Part shown: positions 4,155 through 57,046 of the stretch, piece by piece
Position numbering within the stretch: the stretch's first letter is position 1
Layout of the letters: every line of letters begins with the position of its first letter
NCBI GenBank assembly: GCA_005223145.1
Contig: NJBL01000002.1
Coordinates: forward strand, 3,541 to 67,540
Direction: 5' to 3'
Length of the DNA: 64,000 nt
From: a bacterium (candidate division B38) B3_B38
GTDB taxonomy: Bacteria; Acidobacteriota; B3-B38; Guanabaribacteriales; B3-B38
Notes under the pieces: generated by a model
Seen by the model: the letters and a program-made list of their open reading frames with translations, nothing else
What the model was told of the DNA's origin: nothing
The model's database searches: none
Made by a program: the position numbers and the translations under genes

Positions 4155-4190
4155 AGGTAAACGCTGCAGTTATAATCTGAGGAGTATGAA

Positions 4191-10238: not shown

Positions 10239-10243
10239 TCCGC

Positions 10244-12343: not shown

Positions 12344-12463
12344 TTTTAAACCTCCCTGCAATAAAGGTTTCAATCTATGGGGATAAATACTTTGTAATTC
12401 ACCACTCCTTCAGTTTGAGGACTTAAACGGCAAGTCTGCTGTCACATCTACCTTTTAAGATAT

Positions 12464-13744
12464 TTACCTGCTTAACTTTTTCTCAAATTTATTTGAAACC
12501 TCAATACCTGACAAATCTGTAAGCACTTTTAAAAACTGTTCTGTCGATTTCACCTTATTTATTATCAGTCGTTTTAATAACTGCAGAAAATTATCATTAC
12601 CAATTTCTGCTTCCAGTTCGTGAAGTAAAATACAACCTTTATCATACAAGACAGTAGAGGCATTTTCATCCATTCTGTCTATTCCCTTAATCGCAGGCAT
12701 ATTTTTAGATTTTTGGCGCTTAGCTTGTATCAAATCTTTAAATGTTTCGTTTCCGAATTTCTCTCTGACAGCCATTAATGCAGAATACTCAGCAAATGAT
12801 TCATTAAGCCAATCTTCCCAGGTATTAGTAGGAGCATTAAGCCACCAAATATGAGCAAATTCGTGAGCAATGTACCTGAAATAACCGATTTTGTTTTGGT
12901 AATAATCTTCATCTTCAAAATGATTAAAAACAACAAAACCCCTTCTGGCATAACCTCCGCCTATATTTCTTGGAGCAATAACAATCGAAGCCTTATATGC
13001 TTTGATATCACTAAACCATTCACCATAGTTGTCTAATATCCACAGACCTTGTTCCATCATATCAACTGCGGTAGAATCACTCGTAGCAGTGTAACTTATA
13101 TCCATACTCAAACCATTTCTTTGGTTCTTTTTCGTATGAATTTCTTTAGCTGCCATTATGATAATATCATTTGTAGGATTTTCCTGTGAAACCTGCCAAT
13201 AATCGTCCAATTTTTTTGTCTTGCCCATACCAATAATTTGATATTCTGGGTCGATTTTTACATCCACGATATATGTGAAGTTTTCAATTGCAGGCTGATA
13301 AGGAAACCAGGGAGTATACATACCCAGCTCTATCCATTCTTTCGTTATACGATTTATCTCCCATTGCGTTACAACTCCTATTTTCCCGACATATTGCAAA
13401 TTGATTTGTAGCGCTTCGCCTTTTTGTAGTGGTTTGCTCAAGTGAATCGTAAGCGTACCTGCTTCTGGTGTAAAAGGGAAAGCACAGGGATCTTCTGTAT
13501 TAAATGTGTATTCAACAAGATTTTTACATGTTAGAGTTTCAATGGAAAGATTTCTATGAAGATAAAATGTTAAAATGTCAACCCGTTCTTTTTTGGCATA
13601 GTAGGTTAAATCAACATTAGCATTGAGCAGCTGCCTATTTACATCGAGTTTGAGATCAATTTTATAAAAACTGGTGCCAGTTTTCTCTGTAACAAAACAA
13701 CTGGTCAATATAATTAACAGCAGTAAGCAGAATGTCCATCTCAT
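12464..13744 (-). CDS. gluzincin metallopeptidase, M1 aminopeptidase-like (short form), lipoprotein or secreted
   Basis: HEFAHIWW...WLNESFAEY gives HExxH-(18)-E spacing typical of M1. N-terminus MRWTFCLLLLIILTSC has a signal sequence with lipobox-like LTSC. Start moved to the internal Met at 13744. Confidence 0.55.
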   Translation of the reverse strand: MRWTFCLLLLIILTSCFVTEKTGTSFYKIDLKLDVNRQLLNANVDLTYYAKKERVDILTFYLHRNLSIETLTCKNLVEYTFNTEDPCAFPFTPEAGTLTIHLSKPLQKGEALQINLQYVGKIGVVTQWEINRITKEWIELGMYTPWFPYQPAIENFTYIVDVKIDPEYQIIGMGKTKKLDDYWQVSQENPTNDIIIMAAKEIHTKKNQRNGLSMDISYTATSDSTAVDMMEQGLWILDNYGEWFSDIKAYKASIVIAPRNIGGGYARRGFVVFNHFEDEDYYQNKIGYFRYIAHEFAHIWWLNAPTNTWEDWLNESFAEYSALMAVREKFGNETFKDLIQAKRQKSKNMPAIKGIDRMDENASTVLYDKGCILLHELEAEIGNDNFLQLLKRLIINKVKSTEQFLKVLTDLSGIEVSNKFEKKLSR

Positions 13745-14103
13745 TGGAATCTCACCCGTTATATTTTTAAATTTCGGATGATGTTCCTGGGCTTTGCGAA
13801 GCTGACGCAGGCAGTGTGGGCGTAGGGAGTGAGCCGCTAAGCCAGGATTATCTGTCATTTGCCACAAAGTTACGACTCCTTACCTCGTAGCGCACTTACA
13901 AGTCCAGCCAATACAGCGCCAAAGAGGGCTACTTTAAACGCAGTGCACCAAGATATTGACCCTGCTATCAAGATTTGCTTAACAGCTCTCTTATATGGCT
14001 TTAAGATTTATGACCTAATTATCTGCTTCTAAAGCTATTTTCGATTCCCACGGTATCGCCACTCGGGCTTTTTCAATCCGTTGCGGGAATTTTCGCTGGC
14101 TGG

Positions 14104-23344: not shown

Positions 23345-24790
23345 TTGAAGGAATTTACCGATTTAGCGCTCGACACCGCCAGCCGTAAAGGGGCCTCCTA
23401 TGCTGATATCCGTATCTGCTTCTATAAAAACCAGTTTATTAGCGCCAGGGATAAAATCGTCACTGGGGTGAGGGATTACGAGGACTCCGGATTCGGTGTG
23501 CGTGCCTTTTACAATGGTGCCTGGGGCTTCGCCGGCAGCTCGGTCATCTCCAGGGAAGAGGTTCAGGCAGTAGCCTCTCTGGCGGTGGACATTGCTAAAG
23601 CCAGCGCTATGACCATAAAGGTCCCCTTAGAGCTGGTCTCAGTGACCAAATATGTAGACCACTGGCAAACCCCCTTCATTAAAGACCCCTTTAAGATACC
23701 CAATGAGAAGAAGATAAATCTGCTGCTGAAGATTAACGAAATAATGAGCAAGGTGAAAGGAATCAAGAGAACCACCTCCTATATATCCTCCACCAGCGAA
23801 CAAAAATACTTCGCCAGCACCATAGGCTCCTTTATCGAGCAGCTCATAATGAGGTCTTCGGCTGGCTACACAGTCGTGGCAGTTGGCAAGGAAGGGTTTG
23901 AAAGCCGCAGCTTCCAGGATTTCCCCCTCAATAAGGGTTATGAGAATATTGAAGAGCTCCCCTTGATAGAAAATGCCCAGCGGGTGGCGGAAGAGGCGGT
24001 AAAGCACCTCACCGCCAAGGAGTGTCCAGAAGGGGTACAAGACCTTATCCTCTCCCCTTCTCACCTCTGCCTGACCATCCACGAGTCGGTGGGGCATGCC
24101 ACCGAGCTCGACCGGGTGCTGGGGTGGGAAGCCGATTATGCCGGCACCAGCTTTGCCACCACCGATAAACTGGGAAAACTGAAATATGGCTCCCCCTTGG
24201 TCAATTTCACCGGCGACCGGACTCTTCCTCACGGTCGCTCCACCTGCGGTTACGATGATGATGGAGTCAAAACCAAAAAATGGGATATTATCAAGGAAGG
24301 GATTTTAGTCGGCTACTCCACTACCCGGGATACCGCACATTACATTGAAGCTAATGAGAGCAACGGATGCAGCTATGCCGACAGTTGGGCTAGTATCCCC
24401 ATTTTGAGAATGCCTAATGTCTGCCTTTTGCCCGGGAACCAGGGGGCTCCCACTCCCGAAGAGCTCATCGCCGATACCAAAGACGGGATTTACATTGACG
24501 GAATGGGGAGTTTCAGTATTGACCACCAGCGCCGAAATTTCCAGTTCGGTGGGGACGCCTTCTGGGAGATTAAAAACGGAAAGAAGACTCAGATGCTCAA
24601 AAATGTGACCTATCAATCAACTACTCCGGAGTTCTGGGGTTCGGTGGACGCGGTCTGCGGTGAAGAAGATTGGAAACCCTGGAGCATTGCCGACTGCGGA
24701 AAAGGTCAGCCCGGTCAGCAGGGACAGATGACCCACGGGAGTTCCACCATCAGGGTGAGGAGAATAAAGGTAGGAGGAGCGAGAGCATGA
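23345..24790 (+). CDS. tldD: metalloprotease TldD (peptidase U62)
   Basis: HESVGHATELDRVLG motif; length and architecture fit TldD. Probable TTG start after GGAGGAGG. Confidence 0.8.
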   Translation: MKEFTDLALDTASRKGASYADIRICFYKNQFISARDKIVTGVRDYEDSGFGVRAFYNGAWGFAGSSVISREEVQAVASLAVDIAKASAMTIKVPLELVSVTKYVDHWQTPFIKDPFKIPNEKKINLLLKINEIMSKVKGIKRTTSYISSTSEQKYFASTIGSFIEQLIMRSSAGYTVVAVGKEGFESRSFQDFPLNKGYENIEELPLIENAQRVAEEAVKHLTAKECPEGVQDLILSPSHLCLTIHESVGHATELDRVLGWEADYAGTSFATTDKLGKLKYGSPLVNFTGDRTLPHGRSTCGYDDDGVKTKKWDIIKEGILVGYSTTRDTAHYIEANESNGCSYADSWASIPILRMPNVCLLPGNQGAPTPEELIADTKDGIYIDGMGSFSIDHQRRNFQFGGDAFWEIKNGKKTQMLKNVTYQSTTPEFWGSVDAVCGEEDWKPWSIADCGKGQPGQQGQMTHGSSTIRVRRIKVGGARA

Positions 24791-26103
24791 TTTTAACAGA
24801 AACTGAAGCGAAGGCAATCCTGGAGAAGCTTATCAGCTATTCGACCGCCGATGAAATGGTAGCCGTTCTCACCGGGGGAAGCAGAGGCTTCTCTCGCTTT
24901 GCCAACAACGCCATGACCCAGAATGTAGACAAGCGAGGCTTCTCGTTAAATGTGAATGTGGCTTTCGGAAAGAAGGAGGGTTCCTCAACAATTAATAAGT
25001 TTGATGATGCATCCCTAAAAGGCGCAGTCAAAAGGGCAGAATCCATAGCCAGGCTCCTCCCTGCCAACCCCGAACATATGCCTCCCCTCCCCTCTCAGAA
25101 GTATCAGAAAATCGAAGCATACTTTCCGGAGACAGCGGAGTTCGGTCCTATAGACCGGGCTAAGGAAATCCTCAAGGTCATCCAAACCTGCGACCAAAAA
25201 GAGCTCATAACCGCCGGAACTTTCTCCAATGGTGACGGCTTCACTGGTATTGCTAACTCCAAAGGATTGTTTGGTTATCATAAATCTACCAGCTGTGGCT
25301 TCAGCGTCAGCGTGAGAACCCAGGACCGCACGGGTTCGGGCAGAGCGCAGCAGTCAAATGAAAGGAAAATAGGTGATATAAATCCTTCTCCGTTAGCCGC
25401 TGAGGCGATAAGAACAGCAGAGATGTCCCGCAACCCCCATCCCAAGGAGCCGGGGGATTATACGGTAATCCTAAAACCTACAGCTATGATGGAGCTATTT
25501 ATATATCTCCTTTTCGGTCTCAGTGCCCGTTCAGCGGATGAGGGGAGGAGCTTCCTGTCCGACCGCAGAACCGGCGGCAATAAGCTGGGGCAAAAGATAT
25601 TCGGAGAGAACATCACCATTCGGAGTGCAGCTACTCACCCAAAACTCCTGGGTACCCCTTTTGGAGGGGATGGGCTTCCTGCCAGGGACATCACCTGGGT
25701 GGAGAAAGGGGTGGTCAAAAATCTCAGCTACAGCAGGTATTGGGCAGCCAAGAAGGGGAAGGAGCCTACCTTTGCCATGAACTTTCTGATGGAAGGCGGC
25801 GACCATACCATAGAAGAGCTGATAAAGGATACCGACAAGGGGATATTGGTCAGCAGCTTCTGGTATATCCGCATGGTGGACCCCAATAACCTTTTATGTA
25901 CCGGGCTGACCAGAGATGGGACCTTCTGGGTAGAAAACGGTAAGATTCAATACCCTATTAACAACGTCCGGTTCAACGAATCACCAGTGGTGCTCCTCAA
26001 CAACATCGAGAAGATGACCAAACCCCAGAAGGTGGGCTTCGGCATCATGCCGGGGGTAAAAGCCCATAACTTTACTTTATCCAGCGTGTCGGAAGCTGTA
26101 TAA
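24787..26103 (+). CDS. pmbA: metalloprotease PmbA/TldE (peptidase U62 partner)
   Basis: TldD/PmbA-family fold. ATGA start/stop overlap with tldD; GGAGGAG RBS. Confidence 0.7.
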   Translation: MILTETEAKAILEKLISYSTADEMVAVLTGGSRGFSRFANNAMTQNVDKRGFSLNVNVAFGKKEGSSTINKFDDASLKGAVKRAESIARLLPANPEHMPPLPSQKYQKIEAYFPETAEFGPIDRAKEILKVIQTCDQKELITAGTFSNGDGFTGIANSKGLFGYHKSTSCGFSVSVRTQDRTGSGRAQQSNERKIGDINPSPLAAEAIRTAEMSRNPHPKEPGDYTVILKPTAMMELFIYLLFGLSARSADEGRSFLSDRRTGGNKLGQKIFGENITIRSAATHPKLLGTPFGGDGLPARDITWVEKGVVKNLSYSRYWAAKKGKEPTFAMNFLMEGGDHTIEELIKDTDKGILVSSFWYIRMVDPNNLLCTGLTRDGTFWVENGKIQYPINNVRFNESPVVLLNNIEKMTKPQKVGFGIMPGVKAHNFTLSSVSEAV

Positions 26104-44695: not shown

Positions 44696-45148
44696 ATGAA
44701 GGAAAGAATAGACTACGAAAAGATTCTTCGCTCTTCACCCACGGTAACCATCAAAGAATTGAAAGAGTGCTATCCTGTCATCAGGAGGTTGCTTCGGCGT
44801 CTCCAGAAGAGATTAAAGCTTTCTGATGATGAGGTGTACAACTTACAGTTAGCTGTAGGAGAAATCTGCGCTAACGCCATCGAGCATGGGAATAAATGTG
44901 CCCCGGACAAGTCGGTGCACGTCTCCTATGCCTTTCATCAGCATAGATTAATTTTTCAGGTGGAAGACGAAGGCGAAGGGTTCAATCCCGAAGACCTCCC
45001 TGACCCCACTAAGCCGGAAAACCTTCTGAAGAAGAGGGGGCGGGGCATATTTTTAGCCTGCTCGTTGGTGGATGAGATAATCTTCCAAGATAAAGGAAGA
45101 AGGGTCATCCTGGTGAAAAAGCTGACCCAATCGTCATCCCCTGCCTAA
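44696..45148 (+). CDS. anti-sigma regulatory factor, GHKL Ser/Thr kinase (SpoIIAB/RsbW-like)
   Basis: N-box EICANAIEHGNK and G1-box VEDEGEGF. 150 aa. Confidence 0.6.
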   Translation: MKERIDYEKILRSSPTVTIKELKECYPVIRRLLRRLQKRLKLSDDEVYNLQLAVGEICANAIEHGNKCAPDKSVHVSYAFHQHRLIFQVEDEGEGFNPEDLPDPTKPENLLKKRGRGIFLACSLVDEIIFQDKGRRVILVKKLTQSSSPA

Positions 45149-45175: not shown

Positions 45176-46120
45176 TCAGGGCGTGCTAACCTTTATGATG
45201 GATGAGGTGGAAGAAGTAGCATCATCATCATCGGTGACCGTCAGGGTAACCGTCTTATCTCCTGATGTGCTGTAGGGATGGGTAACTATTTTGCCCATAC
45301 CCGTGAGAGCATCTCCAAATTCCCAGCTGTATTTAACGATAGTCCCATCAGGATCGTAAGAAGAGGAGGCATTGAATGTCACCGATTCGCCCACTTTGGG
45401 ATCGGAAGGAGAATAGGTAAAGTTAGCTGTAGGGAAGATGTTAGGTGGAGTAATCACCTTAATAGCTATAGAAGAAATGATAGCCCCGGCGGTGGCGGTC
45501 ACCGTCACCGTATCCACATCCTTATCCCAACTGCCAAGCGTGAGGGTATCGAAAGCCTCCCCACTCTCATTGGTGAGGACAATCTGCCCACCAGAATCGA
45601 GGGCACCGGCATCGGTGGAGAAGGTTATCGCCGCATTAGCAATGGTCTGAGCATTCTCATCAAAGGCAATCGCCGTAATGGAACTGGTGGCTCCCTCCTC
45701 AAAAGAAATGGAAGCCGGCGTGGCGGTGAGGGAGATGAAGGCGATAGCCGCCCCAATCTGGACTATAATGGGCTCTGCAGTGCCCACCACACCTGAACTA
45801 ACCGTTATCTCCGCAATGCCAACCTCAATCCCGCTGGTGAGGATGGAGCGAGCCATACCATCGGTGGTAGTCACCCGCCCATCAATGGTGCCCATGGTGG
45901 TGGTCAGATAAACCACTGTCCCATCGGGCACTGGATAGCCATCACCTCTGGTGATGATGACGGTGATTACCGCGTTGTCTCCCCCAGGGTTAATGACCGC
46001 GGGATTGACACTGATGGTCATAATGGCATCCTCTGGTGCTACAGGGTCGACCTTCTGACAAGACGTTATCAGCCCTATGCAAAGCCCGATGGAGGCGAGA
46101 GTTAACAATTTTTTAATCAT
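45176..46120 (-). CDS. lipoprotein with Ig-like (Big) repeats and C-terminal PKD domain
   Basis: Lipobox LITSC. Thr/Val-rich beta-sandwich repeats. C-terminal YSWEFGDA...GDKTVTLTVTDDDD is a PKD signature. Confidence 0.55.
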   Translation of the reverse strand: MIKKLLTLASIGLCIGLITSCQKVDPVAPEDAIMTISVNPAVINPGGDNAVITVIITRGDGYPVPDGTVVYLTTTMGTIDGRVTTTDGMARSILTSGIEVGIAEITVSSGVVGTAEPIIVQIGAAIAFISLTATPASISFEEGATSSITAIAFDENAQTIANAAITFSTDAGALDSGGQIVLTNESGEAFDTLTLGSWDKDVDTVTVTATAGAIISSIAIKVITPPNIFPTANFTYSPSDPKVGESVTFNASSSYDPDGTIVKYSWEFGDALTGMGKIVTHPYSTSGDKTVTLTVTDDDDATSSTSSIIKVSTP

Positions 46121-46167: not shown

Positions 46168-46578
46168 CTACCATTCCCGGTAATAGGTTCCATCTAAAGC
46201 CTGCTCATAAGAGCCACTGTGAATATCCCATATGCCTGGTTCTTCGTCAGGCTCTAATTTCTCCCAGTCAATATAGACTTCCACCCAAGTTTCAGCCGAT
46301 TCGGTAAATGGGTCCACCGGTATACTCCGCAAATAGCCCTCAGTGACCAGATCTTCCAGCGTGTAGGGGTATCTCTCCTTATCAACATAGAACTGGTCTA
46401 TGCAGTCCCTCATATAAAACAGGTCCTTCTTCAACACCGCCTCTTTTGCTCGGATATGGGAGTAGCGAAAGGTCGGCAGGGCTAAGGTGGCTAAAATCCC
46501 TATCATAGTAATAACTATCATTAACTCAATCAGGGTAAAGCCTTTCTGCTTTGCCGAAATAGCTCGCATCTTATTCAC
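46168..46578 (-). CDS. type IV pilin-like / T2SS GspG-like pseudopilin
   Basis: Prepilin leader and methylation site KGFTLIELMIVITMIGIL. C-terminal ...LDGTYYREW. Confidence 0.7.
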   Translation of the reverse strand: MNKMRAISAKQKGFTLIELMIVITMIGILATLALPTFRYSHIRAKEAVLKKDLFYMRDCIDQFYVDKERYPYTLEDLVTEGYLRSIPVDPFTESAETWVEVYIDWEKLEPDEEPGIWDIHSGSYEQALDGTYYREW

Positions 46579-46590
46579 TCTGTTATTTTC

Positions 46591-47079
46591 TTACCAATCT
46601 TTATATTTAGTGCCATCCAAGGCAATTCCTTCGCTTTTAGAGTAAACATCGAAGACATTCTCCCCTCCCCAAGAGGTGGAATCAAAATCATCCTGATAGG
46701 AACGCATTTCCCAATCGGTGGAGTTAGTCATCGGGTCACGGGGTATGCGGCGCAAAAATTTCTTCATTACATCCAGTTTACCCACCTCTTCCACGCCCTC
46801 GACCAGAGCCTGGAGATCGGGGGGATAGCCTTCGGAGCCGAATTCTGCCGTAATCTGCCCCAGGTCAACCATTTTTTTATATTCGTCGATTGCCCTTCTT
46901 ATAATCCTCAGATTCTCCCGCAGCTCAACCTCTTTAGCCCTCTTGATGGCGATTCGGGCTACCGGCAGGATGGATGCAGCTAAAACAGATATGATGGCTA
47001 CTACCACCATTAGCTCTGCCAGGGTAAACGCCGATGTAGAGCCTCGCATATTGATTTTGGAAGCCAGAACCTTTATCAT
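46591..47079 (-). CDS. type IV pilin-like / T2SS GspG-like pseudopilin (second copy)
   Basis: SAFTLAELMVVVAIISVLA prepilin N-terminus. C-terminal ...LDGTKYKDW is paralogous to the neighbouring pseudopilin. Confidence 0.7.
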   Translation of the reverse strand: MIKVLASKINMRGSTSAFTLAELMVVVAIISVLAASILPVARIAIKRAKEVELRENLRIIRRAIDEYKKMVDLGQITAEFGSEGYPPDLQALVEGVEEVGKLDVMKKFLRRIPRDPMTNSTDWEMRSYQDDFDSTSWGGENVFDVYSKSEGIALDGTKYKDW

Positions 47080-47088
47080 CCTTTCTCC

Positions 47089-49353
47089 CTATTGGACCTG
47101 AATCTTCGCCGGCACAAAATTAGCGGGGAGAGTGTTAGAGGTGGCATCGCGCACACTGTTATTGGAGAAGACTATATCCGTGCTCCCTGCACCGACTGCC
47201 TTGAAAACCACAGTGCACAATATCCCCGACCCATCCACTCCGGTATCCTTCCCTAACCTGGCGAGACTCACCCTCAGCTGTCCTCCCTTATTGTCATAAT
47301 CCCTGACGAAGCTCACCTGGGCACCATCCTTTCCCAATAAGGGTCCCATAGTTACCTCTACTATCTGCAGAACATTGGGGTCAAAGCCCAGATTGAAGGG
47401 TACATGCCCCACATTACGAGCGTTGTCGAGATTGATGTTGACCGAAAATCTTTCTTCCCGAAAGACGATAAGGCTGGCTGGGGTTATGGAAACCTCAGCG
47501 GGAGTGAGTTCTTCACCCATCTCTTCTGGTTCTGGCTCTGCTTCTTCTTCCTCCGGTGGCGACTCCTCGGCTGGAGGGGTTTCCTCCTCTGTCTCCTTTT
47601 TAGCGGGAGCTGGCTTCTCCTCAGGCGGCTTCTCCCCTGCTGGCTTCATCTCTTCCATTACTGCTCTCTCCTCCAATTCGGCAATGGGTGGCGCCTCTCT
47701 ATAAACCATAGCCCTTTCAGTCCCCGCCCAAATAGCCCTCAGGTCTTCCTCGGTAATGTTGGGGGTTTTGATGATGTGAGGGGTCATGGTAAGAACGATG
47801 TCGGTTTCTACATTCTGGGAAAGCTCTTTGGAGAAAATTTTGCCTAATATAGGTATATCGCTCAACCCCGGGATACCAGAAATGGACTTGCGCTCCTCGA
47901 ACCTTATCAAACCTGCCAGCAGGTTGGTCTCCCCATCCTTCAACCTTATTGTTGATTCTATCATCCGGCTGGTGAAGGTTGGCTGCCCTTCCAGCATTTC
48001 GGCCAGAATCGATTCTATCTTCACTGTGAGTGCGAGGGTGATCTCGTTGTTATGGTGCACTCGGGGGGTCAAATCTATCTGAATCCCTACTCGGCGATAC
48101 TGGTAGGAGTGAATAGGGGTCACCACTCCGATAGTCTGTGCCGGGGTGATGGTGGTCACCCGGATGGGGATTTCCTCTCCGATGAACAGAGAAGCCTTTT
48201 CCCCTTCGGTGATTCTGAGCTGAGGCTTGGCCACGAGGCGGGCGTCACTGGTCTGCTTCAGCAGGGTATAAGTAAAAGAGGGAATAGTCAGGAACCAATC
48301 GGCTTGACTGATATAGGGGATTTGAGAAAGACGGATACCGGTCTCCTCCTGAGCCAGGCCCTGAGTAATGCTGTAACTGCTAAGCAACAAGCCGTATTCG
48401 TTGAGCTTGGTTCGGTTAACCTCTAATATCTCAAGGTCAACTATGACCTCCCCTTTCGATTTATCAGCTCGGTTAATTAACTTTTCGGCAAGGGCAATGA
48501 TATCGGCTGAATCGCGAATGGTGACGGAATTGAGCTGAGGATCCGCGGAAATGTTCCTAATCCCCAGAACGGTGCGGAGCCCCTGTAAGACACTTTTGAC
48601 TTCGGCGTTAGACAGGTAAAAGGTCTGGATCACCAGTTCAGTATACTCCCTTCTCTTGGCCGGGTTGTCGGGGACTACAACTATAGTGGTTGGATTGACG
48701 ATCTTGTAAAAATGACCATTAGTGGTTACCAGAGAATCTAACGCATCCAGGAAGGAGACATTGGCCACCTCAAAGCTCATCTTGCGGTCTCTGATGGTGG
48801 GGTCTAACAGGATGTTTATTCCCGAAAGCTTGGCTAAAGCGGTGTAGACTTCCTTCATGTTGTTGCTGGGGAAGCTAAGGGTAATCTTTTCCGGGGATTT
48901 GGGGCTCAAGTAGACAGGAGGAGCCTTCTCAGTCTCTACCTTCTCTTTGAGCATCTCAATCTCGGTCTTCTCTCTAAGCCTCTCAGCTTCCTCCTCTACC
49001 TTGGCTCGGGCTTTATCCATTTCGATGAGGGCAAGCTGATTGGTGGAGTCTAACTCTATCGCCAACCGAAACTCCACCATTGCTTGCTCGATGTTCTCCT
49101 CTTCCATCATCTGTTTTGCCTTGCTCAAATGCACCTTTGATGCCTGACGACGAGCAGTTTCCAGGCTCAGGCGGTAAGCGAGGTTGTCGGGGTTCAATTT
49201 CATGGCTTCGAAGTAATAGAGCACCGCCTGGTCCCAATCGCCCTCTCTCTCTGCCTGCACTCCCCTCTTATAGGTTTTGGTAGCTGCACAGCCGGCTAAA
49301 AAGAAGAGAAGGAGAACGATTACCAACCTTTTTATTAATAACCCGTTTTTCAC
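47089..49353 (-). CDS. pilQ: secretin (PilQ/GspD family) with N-terminal lipoprotein-TPR module and C-terminal Pro/Glu-rich linker plus cohesin-like domain
   Basis: Lipobox LAGC followed by TPR-like helices. Secretin C-domain ending ...DIVLTMTPHIIKTP. Then the PEEKPAPAKKETEEETPPAEESPPEEEEAEPEPEE linker. The final 140 aa (NLGFDPNVLQIVEVTMGPLL...GSGILCTVVFKAVGAGSTDIVF...AKIQV) match the type-I cohesin beta-sandwich pattern. Confidence 0.8.
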   Translation of the reverse strand: MKNGLLIKRLVIVLLLFFLAGCAATKTYKRGVQAEREGDWDQAVLYYFEAMKLNPDNLAYRLSLETARRQASKVHLSKAKQMMEEENIEQAMVEFRLAIELDSTNQLALIEMDKARAKVEEEAERLREKTEIEMLKEKVETEKAPPVYLSPKSPEKITLSFPSNNMKEVYTALAKLSGINILLDPTIRDRKMSFEVANVSFLDALDSLVTTNGHFYKIVNPTTIVVVPDNPAKRREYTELVIQTFYLSNAEVKSVLQGLRTVLGIRNISADPQLNSVTIRDSADIIALAEKLINRADKSKGEVIVDLEILEVNRTKLNEYGLLLSSYSITQGLAQEETGIRLSQIPYISQADWFLTIPSFTYTLLKQTSDARLVAKPQLRITEGEKASLFIGEEIPIRVTTITPAQTIGVVTPIHSYQYRRVGIQIDLTPRVHHNNEITLALTVKIESILAEMLEGQPTFTSRMIESTIRLKDGETNLLAGLIRFEERKSISGIPGLSDIPILGKIFSKELSQNVETDIVLTMTPHIIKTPNITEEDLRAIWAGTERAMVYREAPPIAELEERAVMEEMKPAGEKPPEEKPAPAKKETEEETPPAEESPPEEEEAEPEPEEMGEELTPAEVSITPASLIVFREERFSVNINLDNARNVGHVPFNLGFDPNVLQIVEVTMGPLLGKDGAQVSFVRDYDNKGGQLRVSLARLGKDTGVDGSGILCTVVFKAVGAGSTDIVFSNNSVRDATSNTLPANFVPAKIQVQ

Positions 49354-49394: not shown

Positions 49395-50024
49395 TCAGAA
49401 GTTGCCATTCACTAAGGGGATTTTCTGCTTCAAGCTGGTATTTACTACCCCCAGCTCAATATATTGATAATCTATCTCAAGAATGGTGAATCTCTCCTCT
49501 ATGATGTCCCCCTTGATTCCTACTAAGATTTTGTCCCCTTTTTTGAGGGTAGCTATCATCTGGCTATCCTTTCGGGCAAATCCGAGGAATTTAAATCCAG
49601 CTAACTCCTCGAGCGCGGGGGGAGAACCGGGAGAGGAAGCCTGCTGTTCAGCAGTGGTCTTATCTGCGACCACCCCCCCTTCAGTCTTTCTTGGAGCGTC
49701 TGTTTGCTGCGTCTGCGATGAGGATCGTCTTCTTGTAGAAGCTGGTGCGGCAGCCTTAGCTGCCCCGAACCTGAACAGATTCCTCCCCAAAACAGAGTAA
49801 GCGGGCATCTGCTGGTTGAGGAGCTTCAGGTTTATCTCTGGCAGAAGCGATTTCCCCTGAAGTGAGGAAAGGCGTGCTTCCCCTTCAGATGGAGCCTCTG
49901 AAGTGATAGGGATGCTGGCTATCTCTCCGCTCCTTCCACCTATCCTTCTCAGTTGGTAGGCCACGAGGGCAAAGAACACCACTAACAGAATTAATAACAA
50001 AATCTTTTTCTGCCGTCGCTCCAT
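49395..50024 (-). CDS. PilP-like pilus assembly protein (membrane-anchored, low-complexity linker, C-terminal beta domain)
   Basis: Position between pilO and the secretin. N-terminal TM anchor, Ala/Ser/Thr/Gln-rich linker, C-terminal KGDKILVGIKGDIIEERFTILEIDYQYIEL. Confidence 0.45.
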   Translation of the reverse strand: MERRQKKILLLILLVVFFALVAYQLRRIGGRSGEIASIPITSEAPSEGEARLSSLQGKSLLPEINLKLLNQQMPAYSVLGRNLFRFGAAKAAAPASTRRRSSSQTQQTDAPRKTEGGVVADKTTAEQQASSPGSPPALEELAGFKFLGFARKDSQMIATLKKGDKILVGIKGDIIEERFTILEIDYQYIELGVVNTSLKQKIPLVNGNF

Positions 50025-50071: not shown

Positions 50072-50620
50072 TTATAGCAGAGAGAAATAGGTAGACAGCT
50101 TGATGTTGAGTTTGAGATTACCCCCTGTTTCCTCTGGATTAGAAAGCTCTACACGGTCGATAATGAGGAAATATTTGGAGTTTTCAATCTGGTTGACGAA
50201 GCGTCTCAGATTGGCGTAGCTTCCCCGCAGAGGGAAGGTGATTTCAAATAAAATTACTTTATCTTCCTCAATAATTTCGTGGTTATATTGAATGTTCTGC
50301 TTTTCCACCTGAAATCGCTTGGCTAACCTCTCCACCTCGCCAAGTATATCAACCAACCCTTCCTCTTTTTGGCTCAATGTCTTGGAGTAGAAGTTCTCCA
50401 CCTGCCGGCGGATTTCCTTAAGCCTCTTGTCATTCTCTTTTCTTTGAGCCAGCTCCTGCTTTCCTTTCTCTATCCTCATACCAAGGGCAGCAGCTTTACT
50501 ATCCAGTTTTTTGAGCCATCTCTCCCGGGGCAGGGTGAAAATAGTCAGAATAAGGATATTAGCTACCATAGCGACCAGAACCGGTATCACCAACCATTTA
50601 CGATGCCAGAGAAGTTCCAT
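50072..50620 (-). CDS. pilO: PilO-like inner-membrane pilus assembly protein
   Basis: Single TM helix, coiled coil, and C-terminal domain. Positioned after pilN. Confidence 0.6.
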   Translation of the reverse strand: MELLWHRKWLVIPVLVAMVANILILTIFTLPRERWLKKLDSKAAALGMRIEKGKQELAQRKENDKRLKEIRRQVENFYSKTLSQKEEGLVDILGEVERLAKRFQVEKQNIQYNHEIIEEDKVILFEITFPLRGSYANLRRFVNQIENSKYFLIIDRVELSNPEETGGNLKLNIKLSTYFSLL

Positions 50621-50664
50621 TGACTCCCTTTATCAGAACCTATAGCAGAAGTTTCTATAAATGG

Positions 50665-51243
50665 TCATTCGGAAACCTTAACTTTCGGAAAATAGTCCAA
50701 CTGGAGCTTAAAGTCTATCCTCTTAATCCCCTGATGTTCCTTTTCACCTTCTGTGTTTGGGTAGACAGAGGAGAACACTGGTGATTGCTCCAGGTTTTCA
50801 ATAAACTTTAATATATTTTGATAACCATCCCCTATTAAGCGAAGGTTGATTTTGATCCTCCCACCCTCCACTGTAGGGTTGATGGAGACCATCATAATCC
50901 GTGGTGGCATAATATTCTCGAAGTGATTGAAGAGCTCGGTCCAGGAGAGTTTCCGCCAGCTGATGATCCGATTAATGAAGTCAGTATAACTTCTTAGCTC
51001 CTCGACTTTCCGAGGTTCAATGGCGCGCTCGTAATAGCTTAACGCGTGCCCCTGGCGTCGCAAAGCCGCTTCCTTTAGCAGAATCTGCTCCTTTATGTCC
51101 CGCGAGCTATCCACATAATGCACATAGTTCAACCAGTTATAATAGGATAATCCAACCACTACCAACACTGCCATGGTGAAAATAAAATAGAATAGAGCCA
51201 TATTTCTAAAGGGACGAGAAGCTAAATTTATGGATATTCGCAT
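50665..51243 (-). CDS. pilN: PilN-like pilus assembly protein
   Basis: N-terminal MRISINLASRPFRN (the conserved INLLP-like PilM-binding peptide) followed by a TM helix. Confidence 0.65.
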   Translation of the reverse strand: MRISINLASRPFRNMALFYFIFTMAVLVVVGLSYYNWLNYVHYVDSSRDIKEQILLKEAALRRQGHALSYYERAIEPRKVEELRSYTDFINRIISWRKLSWTELFNHFENIMPPRIMMVSINPTVEGGRIKINLRLIGDGYQNILKFIENLEQSPVFSSVYPNTEGEKEHQGIKRIDFKLQLDYFPKVKVSE

Positions 51244-51247
51244 AGGC

Positions 51248-52261
51248 TCAGCCCCTCACCAGTAAACCAATGGTGGCTGCCAACCTTGAGAGCTCTCCTT
51301 TATCTATAGAGACTCCTTCATCCAGTTTCATTGCCCCCCAGGGATTGATGGTTTCCACCTGGAGATCAAAGTTTTCCTGAATCTGGCTTTTAAGCTCTGT
51401 CAAACGGGGACTAATTCCACCCACATAGACCATTTTAAGCCCATTCCCCCCTAAGCGCTCTTTATAATAGATATAAGATGAATTAAGCTCCCGGAGGGCA
51501 ATTTGAAGGATTGATTTTCCTGAAAAGCCAGCTCCTAATTCTTTGGTGCGATAGAAGATAAGCTCCTCCCCTCGGAAGATCACCATAGAGATATATGCCT
51601 CAGAGAAGTTGACCACCATGCTCTCAGAACTATCATTATGCCCTCTTGGTATAGACCAATGGCAGAAATTGACCAGGCCAAAGGAAGAAGGAATAACCAC
51701 ACCGGGAACAACCCCCCAGGGCTCAAACAACCTCTCAAACTGAGCCCGTACATCCCTCTTAATAATAGCTGCCAGAAGCTTTGGAGAACCATCCCTGCTC
51801 ACCATAGGTTGAAAGCCTATCATAGCCTCTTCTATCCTGAAAGGTAAGGTCTTCTTCAGCTTCCATTGGATGAGCTTCACGGTCTCCCCTTCCCTATGGG
51901 GTAAGCGTTGAAGGTTATCGAGGAGAACCACCTTTACTACGTTGTCCGGAATAAGAAGGTAGATTTTTTTTATCTTTGCCTGATCATTGCTCAGGATGGA
52001 AGCGATCTTCTGTTCTACCACGGGTGGAATGACCATATTGGAGCCGAGCATAGAAGCCTGTACCCCTTCCGGGGAAAGCTCCTCCAGAGAGTAATCAGCC
52101 AGAAAGTAGCTCCCTTTGTGGCGGGCAACCCTCGCCCATCCCAGCCATCTCTGGGATATCTCTATCCCTGTAAGGGGGGCTTTGGAGGGGAATCTCACCA
52201 CATCAGCTATAGACTTAAAAGGATTCATTTCTAACAAAGGATTTAGCCTCTTATTCCACAA
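51248..52261 (-). CDS. pilM: PilM-like actin-fold pilus assembly ATPase
   Basis: Actin-like fold of about 330 aa. C-terminal ...LSRLAATIGLLVRG. The start may instead be the internal Met at 52228. Confidence 0.7.
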   Translation of the reverse strand: MWNKRLNPLLEMNPFKSIADVVRFPSKAPLTGIEISQRWLGWARVARHKGSYFLADYSLEELSPEGVQASMLGSNMVIPPVVEQKIASILSNDQAKIKKIYLLIPDNVVKVVLLDNLQRLPHREGETVKLIQWKLKKTLPFRIEEAMIGFQPMVSRDGSPKLLAAIIKRDVRAQFERLFEPWGVVPGVVIPSSFGLVNFCHWSIPRGHNDSSESMVVNFSEAYISMVIFRGEELIFYRTKELGAGFSGKSILQIALRELNSSYIYYKERLGGNGLKMVYVGGISPRLTELKSQIQENFDLQVETINPWGAMKLDEGVSIDKGELSRLAATIGLLVRG

Positions 52262-53903
52262 AGGTGACCCGATTTATCTCTTGCAGGGTTGCAATTCCAT
52301 TGAGCACCTTCTCCAGAGCCGACTCCCGAAGAAACCTCATCCCCTCTGCTTTTGCCTGCTTTTTAACCTCTGCCCCTGCCCTTTTTTCCAGAATCATAGC
52401 CCTGATGGTATCAGACATCTCCATAAATTCCATAATAGCAGTTCTTCCCCTGAAGCTGGTCCCTCCACAATCGATGCACCCTTTCCCCTCGTAAAAAGTG
52501 AAATCGCGGTATTTCTCTACCTCCAACCCCGACTCCTCCAGTAGCTGGGGAGAGGCTTTAACCGGAGTCTTGCAGGAAGGGCAGATAATCCTTACGAGCC
52601 TCTGGGCTAAAACGCAGTTAACCGCAGAGACGAAGTTATAAGGCTCTATTCCCATATGGAGCATCCTTCCCATAACATCGATGACATTGTTCGCATGGAC
52701 AGTGGTGAAGACCAGGTGCCCAGTGAGAGCTGATTGGATGGCTATTTGAGCGGTTTCGGGGTCTCTGATTTCTCCTACCATAATTTTATCGGGGTCGTGC
52801 CTTAATATAGAACGCAGCCCCCGGGCGAAGGTGAGCCCTTTCTTTTCGTTGACCGGCACCTGGGTAATTCCCTCAATCTGGTACTCCACCGGATCTTCGA
52901 TGGTTATAATCTTATCCTCCTCCCGCTTGATTTCTGAAAGCGCAGCATATAGGGTGGTGGTCTTGCCGCTCCCGGTGGGACCGGTCACCAGAAGCATCCC
53001 ATAGGGTTCGGATATATATTTCCTTATCTTCTTCAGCTCCCGGGGGGAGAAACCGAGAACATCGAGCCTGAGCTCAGCAAACTCCTTATTGATGGACTCT
53101 TTGTCCAAAATCCTGATAACGGCATCCTCTCCGAAGATGTTGGGCATAATGGAGACCCGAAAATCGATGGTCCTCCCCTTATATTTGAGTTTGAACCTTC
53201 CATCCTGGGGGATGCGCTTCTCAGCTATGTCCAGCTCGGACATAACCTTTATGCGGGAGATTATGGTCCCGCTGTGCTTATTATCAATGGGCTCCATCGC
53301 CTGTAACAGAGAGCCATCGATCCGATATTTTATGAGCACCTCATCGTCCTTGCTCTCAACATGAATATCACTGGCTCTTCTCTCAATAGCATTGAAGATA
53401 ATGGAATCGACCAGCCTGATCATAGGGCTGGTATCCTGGGTCAGCTTATCGATGGAGAGGCCCTCTTGCTCCCCTTCTTCCTCAGAAACCAGCTGAAGAC
53501 GGAACCCTTCGGTTGCTTCCTCCAGAATCCGCTGCGAGGACTCGCTCTTCTTCAATATCTCCTGGATGGCACTTTTGCAGCCCACCTTAACCTCTATGTG
53601 GATTCCCAGCAAGAGCTCTATCTCATCGACCATAAGGATATCCGAAGGGTCTGCCATGGCGATGGTAAGGGAAGCTTCATTCTTCTCCAGAGGGATAAAA
53701 TTGTACTTCATCATGAGCTGAACCGGTATTCTCTGAAAGAGGTCGTGGTCAACTATGAAATCTGTAAGGTCGATGTATTCGAGACGTAGCTTCTGGGCTA
53801 ATTGCCTCGCTTCTTCCTCCTCGGCTATTTTCGTCTCATTGAAGAATGAGTACCCCTTTGCTCCTTTTGGCAAGTTTTTGTTTTCCTCTTCCATAATGCT
53901 CAA
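52251..53903 (-). CDS. pilB: type IV pilus / T2SS assembly ATPase (GspE/PilB)
   Basis: Walker A LLVTGPTGSGKTTTL. Asp and His boxes. Tetracysteine CPSCK...CIDCGG. Confidence 0.85.
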   Translation of the reverse strand: MSIMEEENKNLPKGAKGYSFFNETKIAEEEEARQLAQKLRLEYIDLTDFIVDHDLFQRIPVQLMMKYNFIPLEKNEASLTIAMADPSDILMVDEIELLLGIHIEVKVGCKSAIQEILKKSESSQRILEEATEGFRLQLVSEEEGEQEGLSIDKLTQDTSPMIRLVDSIIFNAIERRASDIHVESKDDEVLIKYRIDGSLLQAMEPIDNKHSGTIISRIKVMSELDIAEKRIPQDGRFKLKYKGRTIDFRVSIMPNIFGEDAVIRILDKESINKEFAELRLDVLGFSPRELKKIRKYISEPYGMLLVTGPTGSGKTTTLYAALSEIKREEDKIITIEDPVEYQIEGITQVPVNEKKGLTFARGLRSILRHDPDKIMVGEIRDPETAQIAIQSALTGHLVFTTVHANNVIDVMGRMLHMGIEPYNFVSAVNCVLAQRLVRIICPSCKTPVKASPQLLEESGLEVEKYRDFTFYEGKGCIDCGGTSFRGRTAIMEFMEMSDTIRAMILEKRAGAEVKKQAKAEGMRFLRESALEKVLNGIATLQEINRVTFVE

Positions 53904-53940
53904 TCTCCAGTAAGGATGATAAATAAACCTCTGCGCCTGT

Positions 53941-55146
53941 TCACCTCACTGCCGATATCACCCTGAACAGGGGGAGATACATCGACAGAAGCATCCCGGC
54001 AACAACTAATCCCATTCCCACAAGGAGAACTGGCTCCAGCAAGGATATAAGAGAATTGAGGTTATTATCAATCTCCTCGTCGTAGAAATCGGATATATTG
54101 CTCAACATCTCAGAAAGGGAGCCGGTCTCCTCGCCTACCTGTATCATCTCCAGGGTCATTTCGGTCATCAGACCTGTCTTCTCTAAAGAGTCGGACAAAC
54201 TCTCCCCTTCTACTACCTTTTCCACCACATTGCTTACTTCACGGGCGACCAGCTGGTTGCTCACCGATTGAGTGGCAACCTGCAAAGAAGGGACCAATGG
54301 TATTCCTCCAGAAAGCATGGTCGCCAGGCTACGGGTCAGCTGGGAGATAGAATACTTCTTCCAGATACGACCAAACAGCGGGAGCTTGATCCCTACCCGG
54401 CTGAGTAATATCCCCCCCTTCTCCGTTCTCTTCCATAATTGGAAGAAGGCTAAAGCAAGGACGATTATCAAAGCAATAAAGACGATATTCTGCTTTATAA
54501 ACAGGGATACGCGGATCAAAGTTAGGGTCAGAAGGGGCAATTGGGCGTTGAATTCGGCGTAAAACTGGGAAAATTTTGGAAAGACATAGGTAAGCAATAT
54601 GACTACCAGACCGATAGAAAGAGCGATAAGAACCAGGGGATAGGAGATAGATGAAAGCACTTTCTTGCGTAGAGAAGATAGTATACGCACATATCTGGTA
54701 TAGTGTCTCAGCATCCCCTCTAAATCACCGCTCTTCTCCCCTGCCACCAGAGAGGCAATATATATGCGAGGGAAAGCCCCGCCCTGCATATCAAAAGCAT
54801 CCGACAGGGAGAAGCCAGATTTGACCTTTTCCCTCACATCTTGCAAGATGGTCTTAAACCTCGACTTTGGACGCCGCTTGATTAATATATCCAGGGATTG
54901 AAGCACAGGGAGCCCCGCACGGATGAGGGTGGCTAACTCCTGATTGAATATCAGAAAGTCGTCTATCTTGATCTTTTTTCTCCAAAAAGGGAGACCCCCA
55001 GCCAGCGATAGCTTCCTCTTTATGTGGAAGATATAAAAATCCCCCTGCTCCAGCTGTCGACGGAGCACTTCCTCATTAGGAGCGCTGAAAATCTGCTCCA
55101 CTATCTCCCCGGCAGAGTTGCCCACCTTGCACCTATAAAATGCCAT
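53941..55146 (-). CDS. pilC: type IV pilus / T2SS platform protein (GspF/PilC)
   Basis: Two T2SSF repeats with three TM segments. Length 401 aa. Confidence 0.8.
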   Translation of the reverse strand: MAFYRCKVGNSAGEIVEQIFSAPNEEVLRRQLEQGDFYIFHIKRKLSLAGGLPFWRKKIKIDDFLIFNQELATLIRAGLPVLQSLDILIKRRPKSRFKTILQDVREKVKSGFSLSDAFDMQGGAFPRIYIASLVAGEKSGDLEGMLRHYTRYVRILSSLRKKVLSSISYPLVLIALSIGLVVILLTYVFPKFSQFYAEFNAQLPLLTLTLIRVSLFIKQNIVFIALIIVLALAFFQLWKRTEKGGILLSRVGIKLPLFGRIWKKYSISQLTRSLATMLSGGIPLVPSLQVATQSVSNQLVAREVSNVVEKVVEGESLSDSLEKTGLMTEMTLEMIQVGEETGSLSEMLSNISDFYDEEIDNNLNSLISLLEPVLLVGMGLVVAGMLLSMYLPLFRVISAVR

Positions 55147-55156: not shown

Positions 55157-55876
55157 TCACCTCTGAACTTTGGCTGTAATGACCATCAGCAGAGCGCGAT
55201 CGCTCATCTCGCTTTTAGATGCCCCCACAATGATGGTCTGCTGGTTAATCAGGTTCAAGGCAGAACTGAAGAGCTTTTTATATCGGTACTTGCCATTAGG
55301 AAGAAGCTCACTCTTAAACAGCGTGAAGTTCCGCAACTTAATAACCCCCGGACCATCGTCAATAAACTCTCCATAGAAGCTTATAAAATATCGATTGCCC
55401 GCCTGATGCCGGAAATTCTCCCCCTCCACTGCCTTCAGCAAAACCCTGTCCACCAATTCATAGTGGTTGAAGTTCAGAACTCCGCTCAGCCTATTGGCCA
55501 CCTCTTCCAGCTCCACGGAGACCTTGCCTGGCTGAGCGGCTTTGCTGGCTTCAATGAAGTGGATGGCAATAATGAGCCGTTTCGGCGGAAGGTCAAAAGC
55601 CCTTATCACCTTCTCTATTTTCTCGAGGTTGTAAGGGAAGTCTTTGACCACCAATTGCTTCTGCTGCGGCCTTATCAGAATAGACCCCTGGCTGCTGACA
55701 AATGGTCTGATCTTGAGAGTAGCCTCATTGAGGTCTCTAAACCTCAAGGTAAAGGTTTTCTCTTTCAACTTCTGGTCAGAAGCCTCCTGATAACAAAAGG
55801 AGGTAGCAGTAAAACATAGCACCATAATAAGGGAGAGCATTAACCCTATCTCTCCTCTCTGACAAAAATTTCTCAT
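55157..55876 (-). CDS. secreted protein with Secretin_N (NolW-like) domain
   Basis: Signal peptide. LRFRDLNEATLKIRPFVSSQGSILIRPQQKQLVVKDFPYNLEKIEKVIRAFDLPPKRLIIAIHFIEAS follows the Secretin_N pattern (…v.vD.r.N.Liv….i…I..lD.pp.qv.I…iiE.). RBS GGGGGA. Confidence 0.5.
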   Translation of the reverse strand: MRNFCQRGEIGLMLSLIMVLCFTATSFCYQEASDQKLKEKTFTLRFRDLNEATLKIRPFVSSQGSILIRPQQKQLVVKDFPYNLEKIEKVIRAFDLPPKRLIIAIHFIEASKAAQPGKVSVELEEVANRLSGVLNFNHYELVDRVLLKAVEGENFRHQAGNRYFISFYGEFIDDGPGVIKLRNFTLFKSELLPNGKYRYKKLFSSALNLINQQTIIVGASKSEMSDRALLMVITAKVQR

Positions 55877-55895
55877 ATCATCCCCCTTCTGACAT

Positions 55896-56438
55896 CTAAA
55901 GGTCAATTTCTGAGCCGAATATTAAGATAAGATTTGTTTTGTCCTCCAATAGGAGGTTGTAAACTCGGAGGTTAGGGCTTTCTACCTTCTCGAGGGTGGG
56001 ATAACGGTTTTCCAGCTCCTCAGCTTTCTCCGGAGATACCACCTCTCCCCTTCCCTTCCAGGGCTCGGCTATAAGGGAAGGCTCCTCGCCCTTCTCGGCT
56101 TGCTGGAAATGTAACCAGGTAAAGGTAGCTAATAAGGCAATAAGGAGCCCGGCTGCCACGCTGGCAATAACTCTATAGCTCCACCTGAAACGGTAAACCG
56201 GCGCCCTCTCCCACTCAATGGCCGCCTTTATCCGGGACCAGAACCCCTCCCAGAAATATTCCTCCTTTTCCTGCAGGGTTAACAAAGAGAAAAGCTTGGA
56301 AGGCTCATTTAAGCAGACCGCCTTATAACATCTGGGGCAGCGAGCTAAATGCCTCTCTATTTCTCTGGTCTCCTCCTCGGAGAGCTCATATCTGAGGTAA
56401 GAGTCCATTAAAACAGCAATCTCTTTGCAAACTTTCAT
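55896..56438 (-). CDS. zinc-finger (zf-HC2) anti-sigma factor, single-pass membrane
   Basis: HLARCPRCYKAVC motif plus the TM helix VIASVAAGLLIALLATFTWL. Overlaps the sigma gene by 4 nt. Confidence 0.6.
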   Translation of the reverse strand: MKVCKEIAVLMDSYLRYELSEEETREIERHLARCPRCYKAVCLNEPSKLFSLLTLQEKEEYFWEGFWSRIKAAIEWERAPVYRFRWSYRVIASVAAGLLIALLATFTWLHFQQAEKGEEPSLIAEPWKGRGEVVSPEKAEELENRYPTLEKVESPNLRVYNLLLEDKTNLILIFGSEIDL

Positions 56439-57046
56439 TTTCTATTTATCCAGGTTATATATTCCGGGAAATGGCGTTCAATCTGCTCTCGCAAGAACTT
56501 CTTAGCCAGCCAAAGGTTATTCCTTATGGTCGATTGTGTTGCTCTCATAATCTTCGCTATCTCCCGGATAGAAAAGCCATGGATCTCCTTGAGCACAAAA
56601 GCCGCCCGCTGCTTGGGAGGAAGACGGGAGGCGAGACAATTGAAAATCGCCTGCAGCTCCTTGATGAGAAGCTTCTTCTCGGCATCCGGCTGGATGGAGG
56701 GAAGCTCCTCAGCCATCCCCTCCACCGCAGATACCCCACCCGCACCTCTCTTCTTATTGCGAAGATAATCGATGCTCCCATTCACCACCATCCTGTAAAG
56801 CCAGGTATTAAATTTTCTCCCCCGCTGAAACCTCCCTATGCGCTGCCACAGCTTGATAAAAGTTTCCTGGGTAATATCCAGAGCACCATCTTCATCGCCG
56901 GTTATCTGATATGCAATCCAGAATATCCGCTGTCGCTTCCGCTCTACCAGCTCTTCAAACGCTTGCCAATCCCCTCTTTGGCACCTCTTGATGAGAAGCT
57001 CTTCCTCCTCGCTACTGACTTCCCAGCGCTTGTCAGGCTTATCCAC
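56435..57046 (-). CDS. ECF-subfamily RNA polymerase sigma-70 factor
   Basis: Region 2 (FEELVERKRQRIFWIAYQITGDEDGALDITQETFIKLW) and region 4 (FSIREIAKIMRATQSTIRNNLWLAKK). Confidence 0.8.
   Translation of the reverse strand: MDKPDKRWEVSSEEEELLIKRCQRGDWQAFEELVERKRQRIFWIAYQITGDEDGALDITQETFIKLWQRIGRFQRGRKFNTWLYRMVVNGSIDYLRNKKRGAGGVSAVEGMAEELPSIQPDAEKKLLIKELQAIFNCLASRLPPKQRAAFVLKEIHGFSIREIAKIMRATQSTIRNNLWLAKKFLREQIERHFPEYITWINRK

Follow-up and report, generated by a model that had tools for sequence, protein, structure and literature searches.

Type II and type III secretion, type IV pili and the export of filamentous phage all share secretins as their gates in the outer membrane, and both the piloting of secretins to that membrane and the delivery of cargo to them have mostly been studied in Proteobacteria. 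Here we describe a secretin from the Acidobacteriota, among the most abundant phyla of soil and sediment, encoded by the minus-strand open reading frame (ORF) at 47089-49353 of a 64,000-nucleotide stretch of contig NJBL01000002.1 from the bacterium B3_B38. We refer to the whole of this stretch as the window, and all coordinates count from its first letter. The secretin is predicted to be a lipoprotein with its own N-terminal anchor, followed on the same chain by a tetratricopeptide repeat (TPR)-like module, the secretin domains, a long acidic tether and a C-terminal cohesin module. In solved secretins the C-terminal S-domain binds pilotins, which are lipoproteins of the Lol pathway anchored in the outer membrane (PMC6532946, PMC10499894, PMC10653833). 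TPR pilotins are anchored at the inner leaflet of that membrane, where Tgl has been placed (PMC10653833), and the TPR lipoprotein TadD uses its groove to bind the C-terminal tip or tail of the RcpA secretin (PMC10499894). HxcQ is a lipoprotein secretin that is piloted by its own lipid anchor (PMC3542185).

Modules of the secretin and their conservation

The secretin gene runs from a GTG start codon at 49353, with an AAGGAGG ribosome-binding site directly 5' of it, to a stop codon at 47089-47091, and encodes 754 amino acids (aa). Its guanine-plus-cytosine (GC) content is even along the whole length. Relatives were taken as the best 120 matches in a database of 5.8 billion proteins, an alignment of 78 sequences was prepared, and a full-length AlphaFold2 model was built on this alignment (mean predicted local distance difference test score, pLDDT, of 77.5). 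From the N-terminus the modules are ordered lipobox cysteine, TPR, long helix, N0, N1, barrel, post-barrel segment, acidic tether and cohesin, and the full set is kept in all 78 of the aligned relatives.

The C-terminal module (residues 615-754, 140 aa; 47092-47511, minus strand, as are all features of this gene) is a true cohesin by hidden Markov model (HMM), by profile search against the PDB and by predicted fold. The Pfam Cohesin model PF00963 matches residues 634-744 (E = 6e-14; 52.8 bits against a curated cutoff of 24.1). When a family profile of the last ~143 residues was searched against the PDB, the significant matches were all cohesins (E from 3e-9 to 1e-5), with 3l8q (3e-9), 6kg8 (2e-7) and the non-cellulosomal Archaeoglobus cohesin 2xdh (9e-7) as the best of them. 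Modelled alone with AlphaFold2 the domain gave a pLDDT of 95.6 and a predicted template modelling score (pTM) of 0.89, and within the full-length model residues 615-754 are all-beta with pLDDT of 93-98. The predicted fold is a nine-stranded flattened beta-sandwich (jelly roll), and Foldseek with the full-length model recovers the same cohesins at a target TM-score of ~0.8. A first-pass annotation, made from the sequence alone, had proposed a C-terminal cohesin from its conservation pattern, and both the HMM and the fold bear this out.

The cohesin region measures 139-142 aa in 78/78 sequences, with Gly670, Gly708, Gly710 and Gly723 invariant. Conservation is highest in two blocks, V-x-H650-L-P, where strand 3 ends, and G-A-S698-R699-L-G...G-V-x-G-x-G, where strands 6 and 7 meet. 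By comparison with structure 1OHZ, these blocks would lie on or beside the sheet with which type I cohesins bind dockerin. The conserved blocks favour a binding surface over a passive spacer.

The cohesin hangs on a disordered acidic tether rich in Glu and Pro (residues 553-614; 47512-47697, from composition and pLDDT), which contains 24 Glu and 13 Pro in 62 residues and agrees with the acidic Pro/Glu linker of about 60 aa described at first pass. In the AlphaFold2 model pLDDT is below 50 from residue 541 to 614, giving a disordered stretch of 62-74 aa, and across the family the tether is 11-157 aa long with a median net charge of -14.

Identification of the secretin core, the starting point of the first-pass annotation, stands. 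The beta-barrel and gate domain (residues 365-531; 47761-48261) is matched by the Pfam Secretin model PF00263 over residues 365-529 (E = 6e-38; 130.5 bits against a cutoff of 27.5). In the AlphaFold2 model the secretin sheets span residues 371-529, and the motif DIVLTMTPHIIKTP sits at residue 518. Foldseek with the full-length model finds the cryo-electron microscopy structures of PilQ, GspD and InvG at E values spanning 1e-18 to 1e-13, including 6w6m (PilQ, 2e-18), 5zdh (GspD, 2e-17) and 6q14 (InvG, 3e-16), and its alignment to 6hcg runs to 583 columns. The protein belongs to the secretin superfamily and falls outside both GspD and PilQ as NCBIfam delimits them: it scores 137.3 bits with the GspD equivalog TIGR02517 (cutoff 351.35) and 102.5 bits with PilQ TIGR02515 (subfamily cutoff 284.35), with no AMIN match. 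A Pfam scan of the secretin found neither AMIN nor any other peptidoglycan-binding domain.

The first-pass annotation had the N-terminal TPR helices stand in place of the usual N0/AMIN domains. This was mistaken, since N0 (157-228) and N1 (243-299 in Pfam) are both present between the TPR module and the barrel. The N0 (STN-like) periplasmic domain (residues 157-228; 48670-48885) was assigned from its alpha/beta fold in the AlphaFold2 model (pLDDT 83-91) and from the NCBIfam HofQ model, which aligns from residue 152; a homologue that is 45% identical, P0012, carries a precomputed PF07660/STN match. The N1 or Secretin_N domain (residues 240-299; 48457-48636) is matched by PF03958 over residues 243-299 (E = 2e-9; 37.9 bits against a cutoff of 28.2) and occupies residues 240-296 of the model.

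A conserved segment, ITEEDL..W.GTE, follows the barrel in the position of an S-domain (residues 532-552; 47698-47760, from the 78-sequence alignment). Across these sequences D537 and G544 are invariant, and L538, W542, T545, E546 and R552 nearly so. Most family members outside the Aminicenantes have an additional conserved stretch, 'NITFRGGSPRVES..EGPFD...AERIREMIRRRIQNLPRGL', after the barrel and before the acidic tether (equivalent to about residues 548-560). This stretch, which may be an S-domain-like helix, is absent from the window secretin.

At the other end of the protein, residues 1-22 form a lipoprotein signal peptide, MKNGLLIKRLVIVLLLFFLAGC (49288-49353), with the lipobox L-A-G-C at residues 19-22 and predicted acylation of Cys22. 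We scored a lipoprotein by the presence of an n-region, an h-region and a lipobox of the form [LVI][ASTVI][GAS]C. Here a basic n-region and a hydrophobic h-region precede the lipobox, and Cys22 is invariant in 78/78 homologues. The possibility that the lipobox was a signal-peptide artefact was decided in favour of the lipobox seen at first pass. The anchor is followed by a TPR-like module of ~2-3 hairpins (residues 23-105) and a long charged helix (106-141; together 48931-49287). AlphaFold2 places helices at residues 3-37, 40-53, 58-84, 88-101, 106-127 and 131-141, with pLDDT above 90 to about residue 120. The single-sequence Pfam TPR_1/TPR_2 match (residues 28-57) reaches 22.6 bits, short of the gathering cutoff of 27.8. 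Searched against the PDB, a profile built from the N-terminal 128 residues of the family finds consensus TPR proteins (CTPR) and OGT at E values from 1e-15 to 1e-44. The proposal that the region is a built-in pilotin of the PilF/PilW type survives in part: TPR helices do follow the lipobox, but the module is too short. We rejected identity with the PilF/PilW-type pilotins, as the module is fused to the secretin, has ~2-3 repeats versus 5-6 and shows no specific match to PilF or PilW among the 60 PDB profile matches listed.

The secretin-cohesin architecture is widespread. Precomputed Secretin PF00263 and Cohesin PF00963 matches occur together on 98 of the best 120 relatives, and the rest are of the same length as the others, with those that were aligned keeping the cohesin domain. 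NCBI names some relatives 'cohesin domain-containing protein'. The closest are Candidatus Aminicenantes metagenome-assembled genomes, at 93% and 90% identity and identical length, and the window copy belongs to a relative of that group. More distant relatives, at 31-42% identity, are from Thermoanaerobaculia, from Holophagae and from other Acidobacteriota. More than 100 independent assemblies, some with contigs of 1.6-5.8 Mb, hold the same full-length architecture. Because the modules are conserved in the 78 sequences, frequent among the relatives and present on large contigs, we regard the architecture as a fixed feature of the phylum Acidobacteriota, and not the curiosity of one bin. The first-pass annotation knew of no earlier report of it, and our literature search likewise found no description of a secretin-cohesin architecture, though the survey of non-cellulosomal cohesins by Peer et al. 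(2009) may mention it; rarity, in contrast, is not supported. The architecture is plentiful in databases yet functionally uncharacterised.

In an exhaustive search with a cohesin profile among 1.84 billion cluster representatives, 26,005 proteins reached E <=1e-3 and 451 of them E <=1e-30. Multi-cohesin, scaffoldin-like proteins score highest. Of four top scorers scanned, P0121, P0125 and P0126 have 4-5 tandem cohesins together with CarboxypepD_reg, and P0121 and P0125 additionally carry a type IX secretion C-terminal sorting domain; by their domain content these multi-cohesin proteins are scaffoldin-like surface proteins outside Clostridia. Among five short single-domain matches scanned, the two with a second recognisable domain (P0210 and P0244) are contig-edge fragments of the same secretin family. 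What is distinctive is the fusion to a secretin; the cohesin type itself is not unique to it.

Placement and role of the cohesin

The cohesin most likely lies in the periplasm and does not face outward, because the C-terminus of a secretin by homology emerges on the periplasmic side and nothing after the barrel could cross the membrane: in the AlphaFold2 model the barrel is followed by a disordered acidic linker, with no membrane-crossing segment. The outward-facing C-terminus assumed by the first-pass annotation is contradicted by this homology to secretins that have an S-domain and a pilotin, short of experimental disproof.

On balance the protein is probably the outer-membrane secretin of a machine resembling a type II secretion system (T2SS) and a type IV pilus (T4P), a self-piloting lipoprotein that would present a ring of tethered periplasmic cohesins as docking sites. 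Acylated Cys22 would make the secretin a client of the Lol pathway and bring it to the outer membrane's inner leaflet, so that the secretin pilots itself as the lipoprotein secretin HxcQ does, and the adjacent TPR module would do in cis what the TPR lipoprotein pilotins PilF, PilW, Tgl and TadD do in trans. Because the secretin C-terminus would leave the barrel at its membrane-proximal rim, facing the periplasm, each pore would have its 12-15 cohesins hanging on flexible acidic tethers just below the outer membrane. Complexes of S-domain and pilotin classically sit in this zone, and the secretin's own lipidated TPR module would be expected in it. The cohesins would serve there as protein-docking sites. 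Candidate partners would be a TPR module, whether of the same subunit or of its neighbour, a further component of the envelope or cargo in the periplasm, and not a canonical dockerin encoded nearby.

Dockerins were sought in several ways. A regular expression for the dockerin Ca-loop had no match in the six-frame translation of the window, and a relaxed Ca-loop expression together with phmmer, using two Clostridium dockerin sequences as queries, found none in the six-frame translations of the window and of 12 related loci (L001-L012 of the set L001-L014). Pfam scans of 41 window ORFs returned no Dockerin family, nor did the precomputed Pfam matches of two distant neighbourhoods (L013 and L014). 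The dockerin-like partner put forward at first pass was thus found neither in the window nor in the 14 related loci, and it is possible that a dockerin is encoded elsewhere in the genome, beyond the loci scanned.

Several points weigh against this account of a self-piloting secretin with docking cohesins. Its periplasmic placement of the cohesin rests on homology with proteobacterial secretins, and no dockerin was found in the 64 kb window or in ~290 kb of related loci. The TPR module has few repeats (~2-3 hairpins in 83-120 aa), and the 60 listed PDB matches of the N-terminal family profile include only generic TPR proteins and neither PilF nor PilW. We had considered a basic TPR module that binds the acidic tether and rejected it, the family median charge of the module being -1. 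Finally, neither the secretin nor the ATPase nor the platform protein of the machine reaches the NCBIfam equivalog cutoffs, be it for T2SS or for the type IVa pilus (T4aP).

A related idea, which we consider unlikely, is that the ring of 12-15 tethered cohesins captures periplasmic cargo or lipoproteins that bear a cryptic, non-canonical cohesin-binding tag; capture of surface enzymes, if the tether reaches outside, would be less likely still.

It is also rather improbable that the cohesin or its tether acts purely in cis, as the equivalent of pilotin and S-domain, by binding a lipidated TPR module, that of its own subunit or of a neighbour, and clamping the ring, with a function in assembly and stability only and no external partner. 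The TPR module and the cohesin co-occur in 78/78 aligned relatives, and the binding of the RcpA C-terminal tail by the TPR groove of TadD is a precedent (PMC10499894). However, 78 sequences are too few to lend support from co-variation, the TPR module is not basic and the tether is strongly acidic, and a fixed clamp would not usually have a tether whose length ranges from 11 to 157 aa.

We give little credence to a structural or spacer role without specific docking, in which the cohesin-fold sandwich on its acidic brush would be a periplasmic bumper, or an anchor to peptidoglycan or polysaccharide in place of the AMIN domains of PilQ. The lack of AMIN or any other peptidoglycan-binding domain in the Pfam scan of the protein would fit such a role, and similar beta-sandwiches are common in adhesins and carbohydrate-binding modules (structure matches ranked 21-60), but the conserved polar residues His650, Asp658, Ser698 and Arg699 suggest a specific binding surface. 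We also know of no cohesin that binds peptidoglycan.

The most striking reading would be a surface cohesin at the mouth of the pore that docks dockerin-bearing secreted enzymes, a cellulosome-like display coupled to the pore. The domain is a true cohesin whose fold is closest to type I cohesins solved with dockerins, the window encodes many peptidases that could be exported, and related cohesins are found in multi-cohesin proteins that the type IX system sorts to the surface. The topology argument nevertheless removes this reading: the S-domain of characterised secretins engages pilotins on the periplasmic face of the outer membrane, and past the barrel there is no membrane-crossing segment but only the disordered acidic linker. 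In addition, no dockerin was found in the window or in the 14 related loci. We consider this reading very unlikely.

A chimeric ORF, in which misassembly or a frameshift joined a secretin gene to an unrelated cohesin gene, is suggested by the unusual architecture and by nothing else, and we ruled it out with near certainty because the full-length architecture recurs in over 100 independent assemblies, with contigs of up to 5.8 Mb among them, with relatives 90-93% identical having the same length and GC content being even across the gene.

The secretion operon and its surroundings

The secretin lies within a tight minus-strand operon of 12-13 genes with intergenic gaps of -11 to +47 nucleotides. 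The gene order is extracytoplasmic function (ECF) sigma factor, anti-sigma factor, a 249-aa protein with a SecN-like domain, GspF, GspE, PilM, PilN, PilO, a 209-aa protein, the secretin, two pseudopilins and, in Aminicenantes-type loci only, a Big_1/PKD lipoprotein. To the extent covered by each contig, all 14 related loci share this order (L013 lies on a contig of 5.8 Mb); they belong to Aminicenantes, Thermoanaerobaculia, Holophagae and other Acidobacteriota, and the machine is conserved as one operon across Acidobacteriota. All operon coordinates below are on the minus strand.

The ECF sigma factor and its anti-sigma factor (55896-57046, NCBIfam) stand at the head of the operon, as they do in most of the related loci examined, which suggests induction of the machine in response to an envelope or extracytoplasmic signal. 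Next to them is the 249-aa secreted protein with a weak Secretin_N-like domain (55157-55906, Pfam and NCBIfam). It is kept between the anti-sigma factor and GspF in every locus that reaches there (L002-L004, L006-L011, L013 and L014) and may be an extra periplasmic ring component. A GspF/PilC platform protein and a GspE/PilB-type ATPase with an MshEN domain follow (52251-55146; T2SSF E = 3e-52 and T2SSE E = 4e-131), and after these the PilM-, PilN- and PilO-like proteins of an alignment subcomplex (50072-52261; PilM_2 E = 3e-9, PilN E = 4.5e-4, which is below its cutoff, and PilO E = 2e-6).

Between PilO and the secretin is the 209-aa protein (49395-50024), in whose translation a transmembrane anchor, a disordered region and, at the C-terminus, a beta domain can be seen; neither Pfam nor NCBIfam matches it. 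It is detectably conserved at the same position in 7 of 12 genome loci, and an unannotated gene of similar size stands there in L013 and L014. From position and layout we infer that it is GspC-HR/PilP-like. On the other side of the secretin are two GspG-like pseudopilins with prepilin N-methylation motifs (46168-47079; Pfam N_methyl, with NCBIfam GspG below its cutoff), both of which terminate in ALDGTxYxxW. The last gene encodes a lipoprotein (signal LITSC) with Invasin_D3, Big_1 and PKD domains by Pfam (45176-46120). It is confined to Aminicenantes-type loci, namely the window, L001, L002 and L014, and is a candidate cargo or partner of the machine.

Assignment of the machine to T2SS or to T4aP was tried and rejected, with the secretin, the ATPase and the platform protein under both sets of cutoffs. 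Because the scores lie below both sets of equivalog cutoffs, we label the machine T2SS/T4P-like, a type IV filament-like system whose output could be secreted proteins or a pilus.

The genes that flank the secretion operon are housekeeping genes. Convergent to the operon end is a plus-strand gene (44696-45148) for a 150-aa HATPase_c_2 protein, an RsbW-like anti-sigma-factor kinase, which is kept in L001 and L002. Further away, six hydrolase and peptidase genes lie within 1654-13867: an alpha/beta hydrolase, an M20/M28 peptidase, an S9 prolyl oligopeptidase, a DPP-IV/S9 peptidase, an M28 peptidase and an M1 peptidase. This run fits a proteolytic lifestyle, and its products are possible cargo of the nearby secretion machine. 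Two adjacent plus-strand genes for TldD/PmbA-family metallopeptidases are found at 23345-26103, where the listed ORFs overlap by ~120 nucleotides; the true start of the second is probably further downstream.

Comparison with known systems

The family shows a different solution to secretin piloting from those described above, fixed in Acidobacteriota, in which the anchor and TPR module are built in and every subunit carries a docking domain on a tether. Were the cohesin to recruit cargo or partners in the envelope, it would give a handle on substrate or partner selection in a phylum rich in uncultivated members and would widen cohesin biology beyond cellulosomes. If the cohesins capture tagged cargo or lipoproteins, this would be a principle of recruitment or cargo display not known for any T2SS or type IV pilus, and it would extend cohesin-based assembly into the diderm envelope. 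If instead the cohesin only stabilises assembly, the protein would be a natural example of pilotin and S-domain function fused in one chain.

Cohesins outside cellulosomes have been described before. Those of Archaeoglobus fulgidus (2XDH) and of Clostridium perfringens NagH and NagJ are extracellular or archaeal and have known or suspected dockerin partners. Unlike these, the present cohesin is fused to a diderm secretin and is probably periplasmic, and no dockerin was found for it in the loci scanned.

Among secretins, the liposecretin HxcQ from Pseudomonas aeruginosa (Viarre et al. 2009, cited in PMC3542185) is, like the protein described here, itself a lipoprotein. HxcQ belongs to the proteobacterial Hxc T2SS, whereas the window secretin is below the GspD equivalog cutoff (137 vs 351 bits). 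To our knowledge HxcQ has no TPR module after its lipid anchor and no cohesin. The TPR pilotins PilF, PilW and Tgl of T4aP and TadD of the Tad system are separate proteins with 5-6 TPRs, whereas here ~2-3 hairpins are fused to the N-terminus of the secretin. The GspD/PulD secretins of T2SS share with it the N0 and N1 domains, the core and a C-terminal extension that is an interaction site at the barrel rim. Their S-domain, a short helix-turn-helix, is the binding site of a small pilotin; in the present protein the extension consists of a disordered acidic tether of 62-74 aa and a 140-aa cohesin. The inner-membrane partners also differ, being PilM/N/O-like here and GspL/M in GspD-type T2SS. By analogy, the protein would resemble an HxcQ-type liposecretin combined with a fused, truncated TPR pilotin and with a GspD that bears a tethered cohesin at the position of its S-domain.

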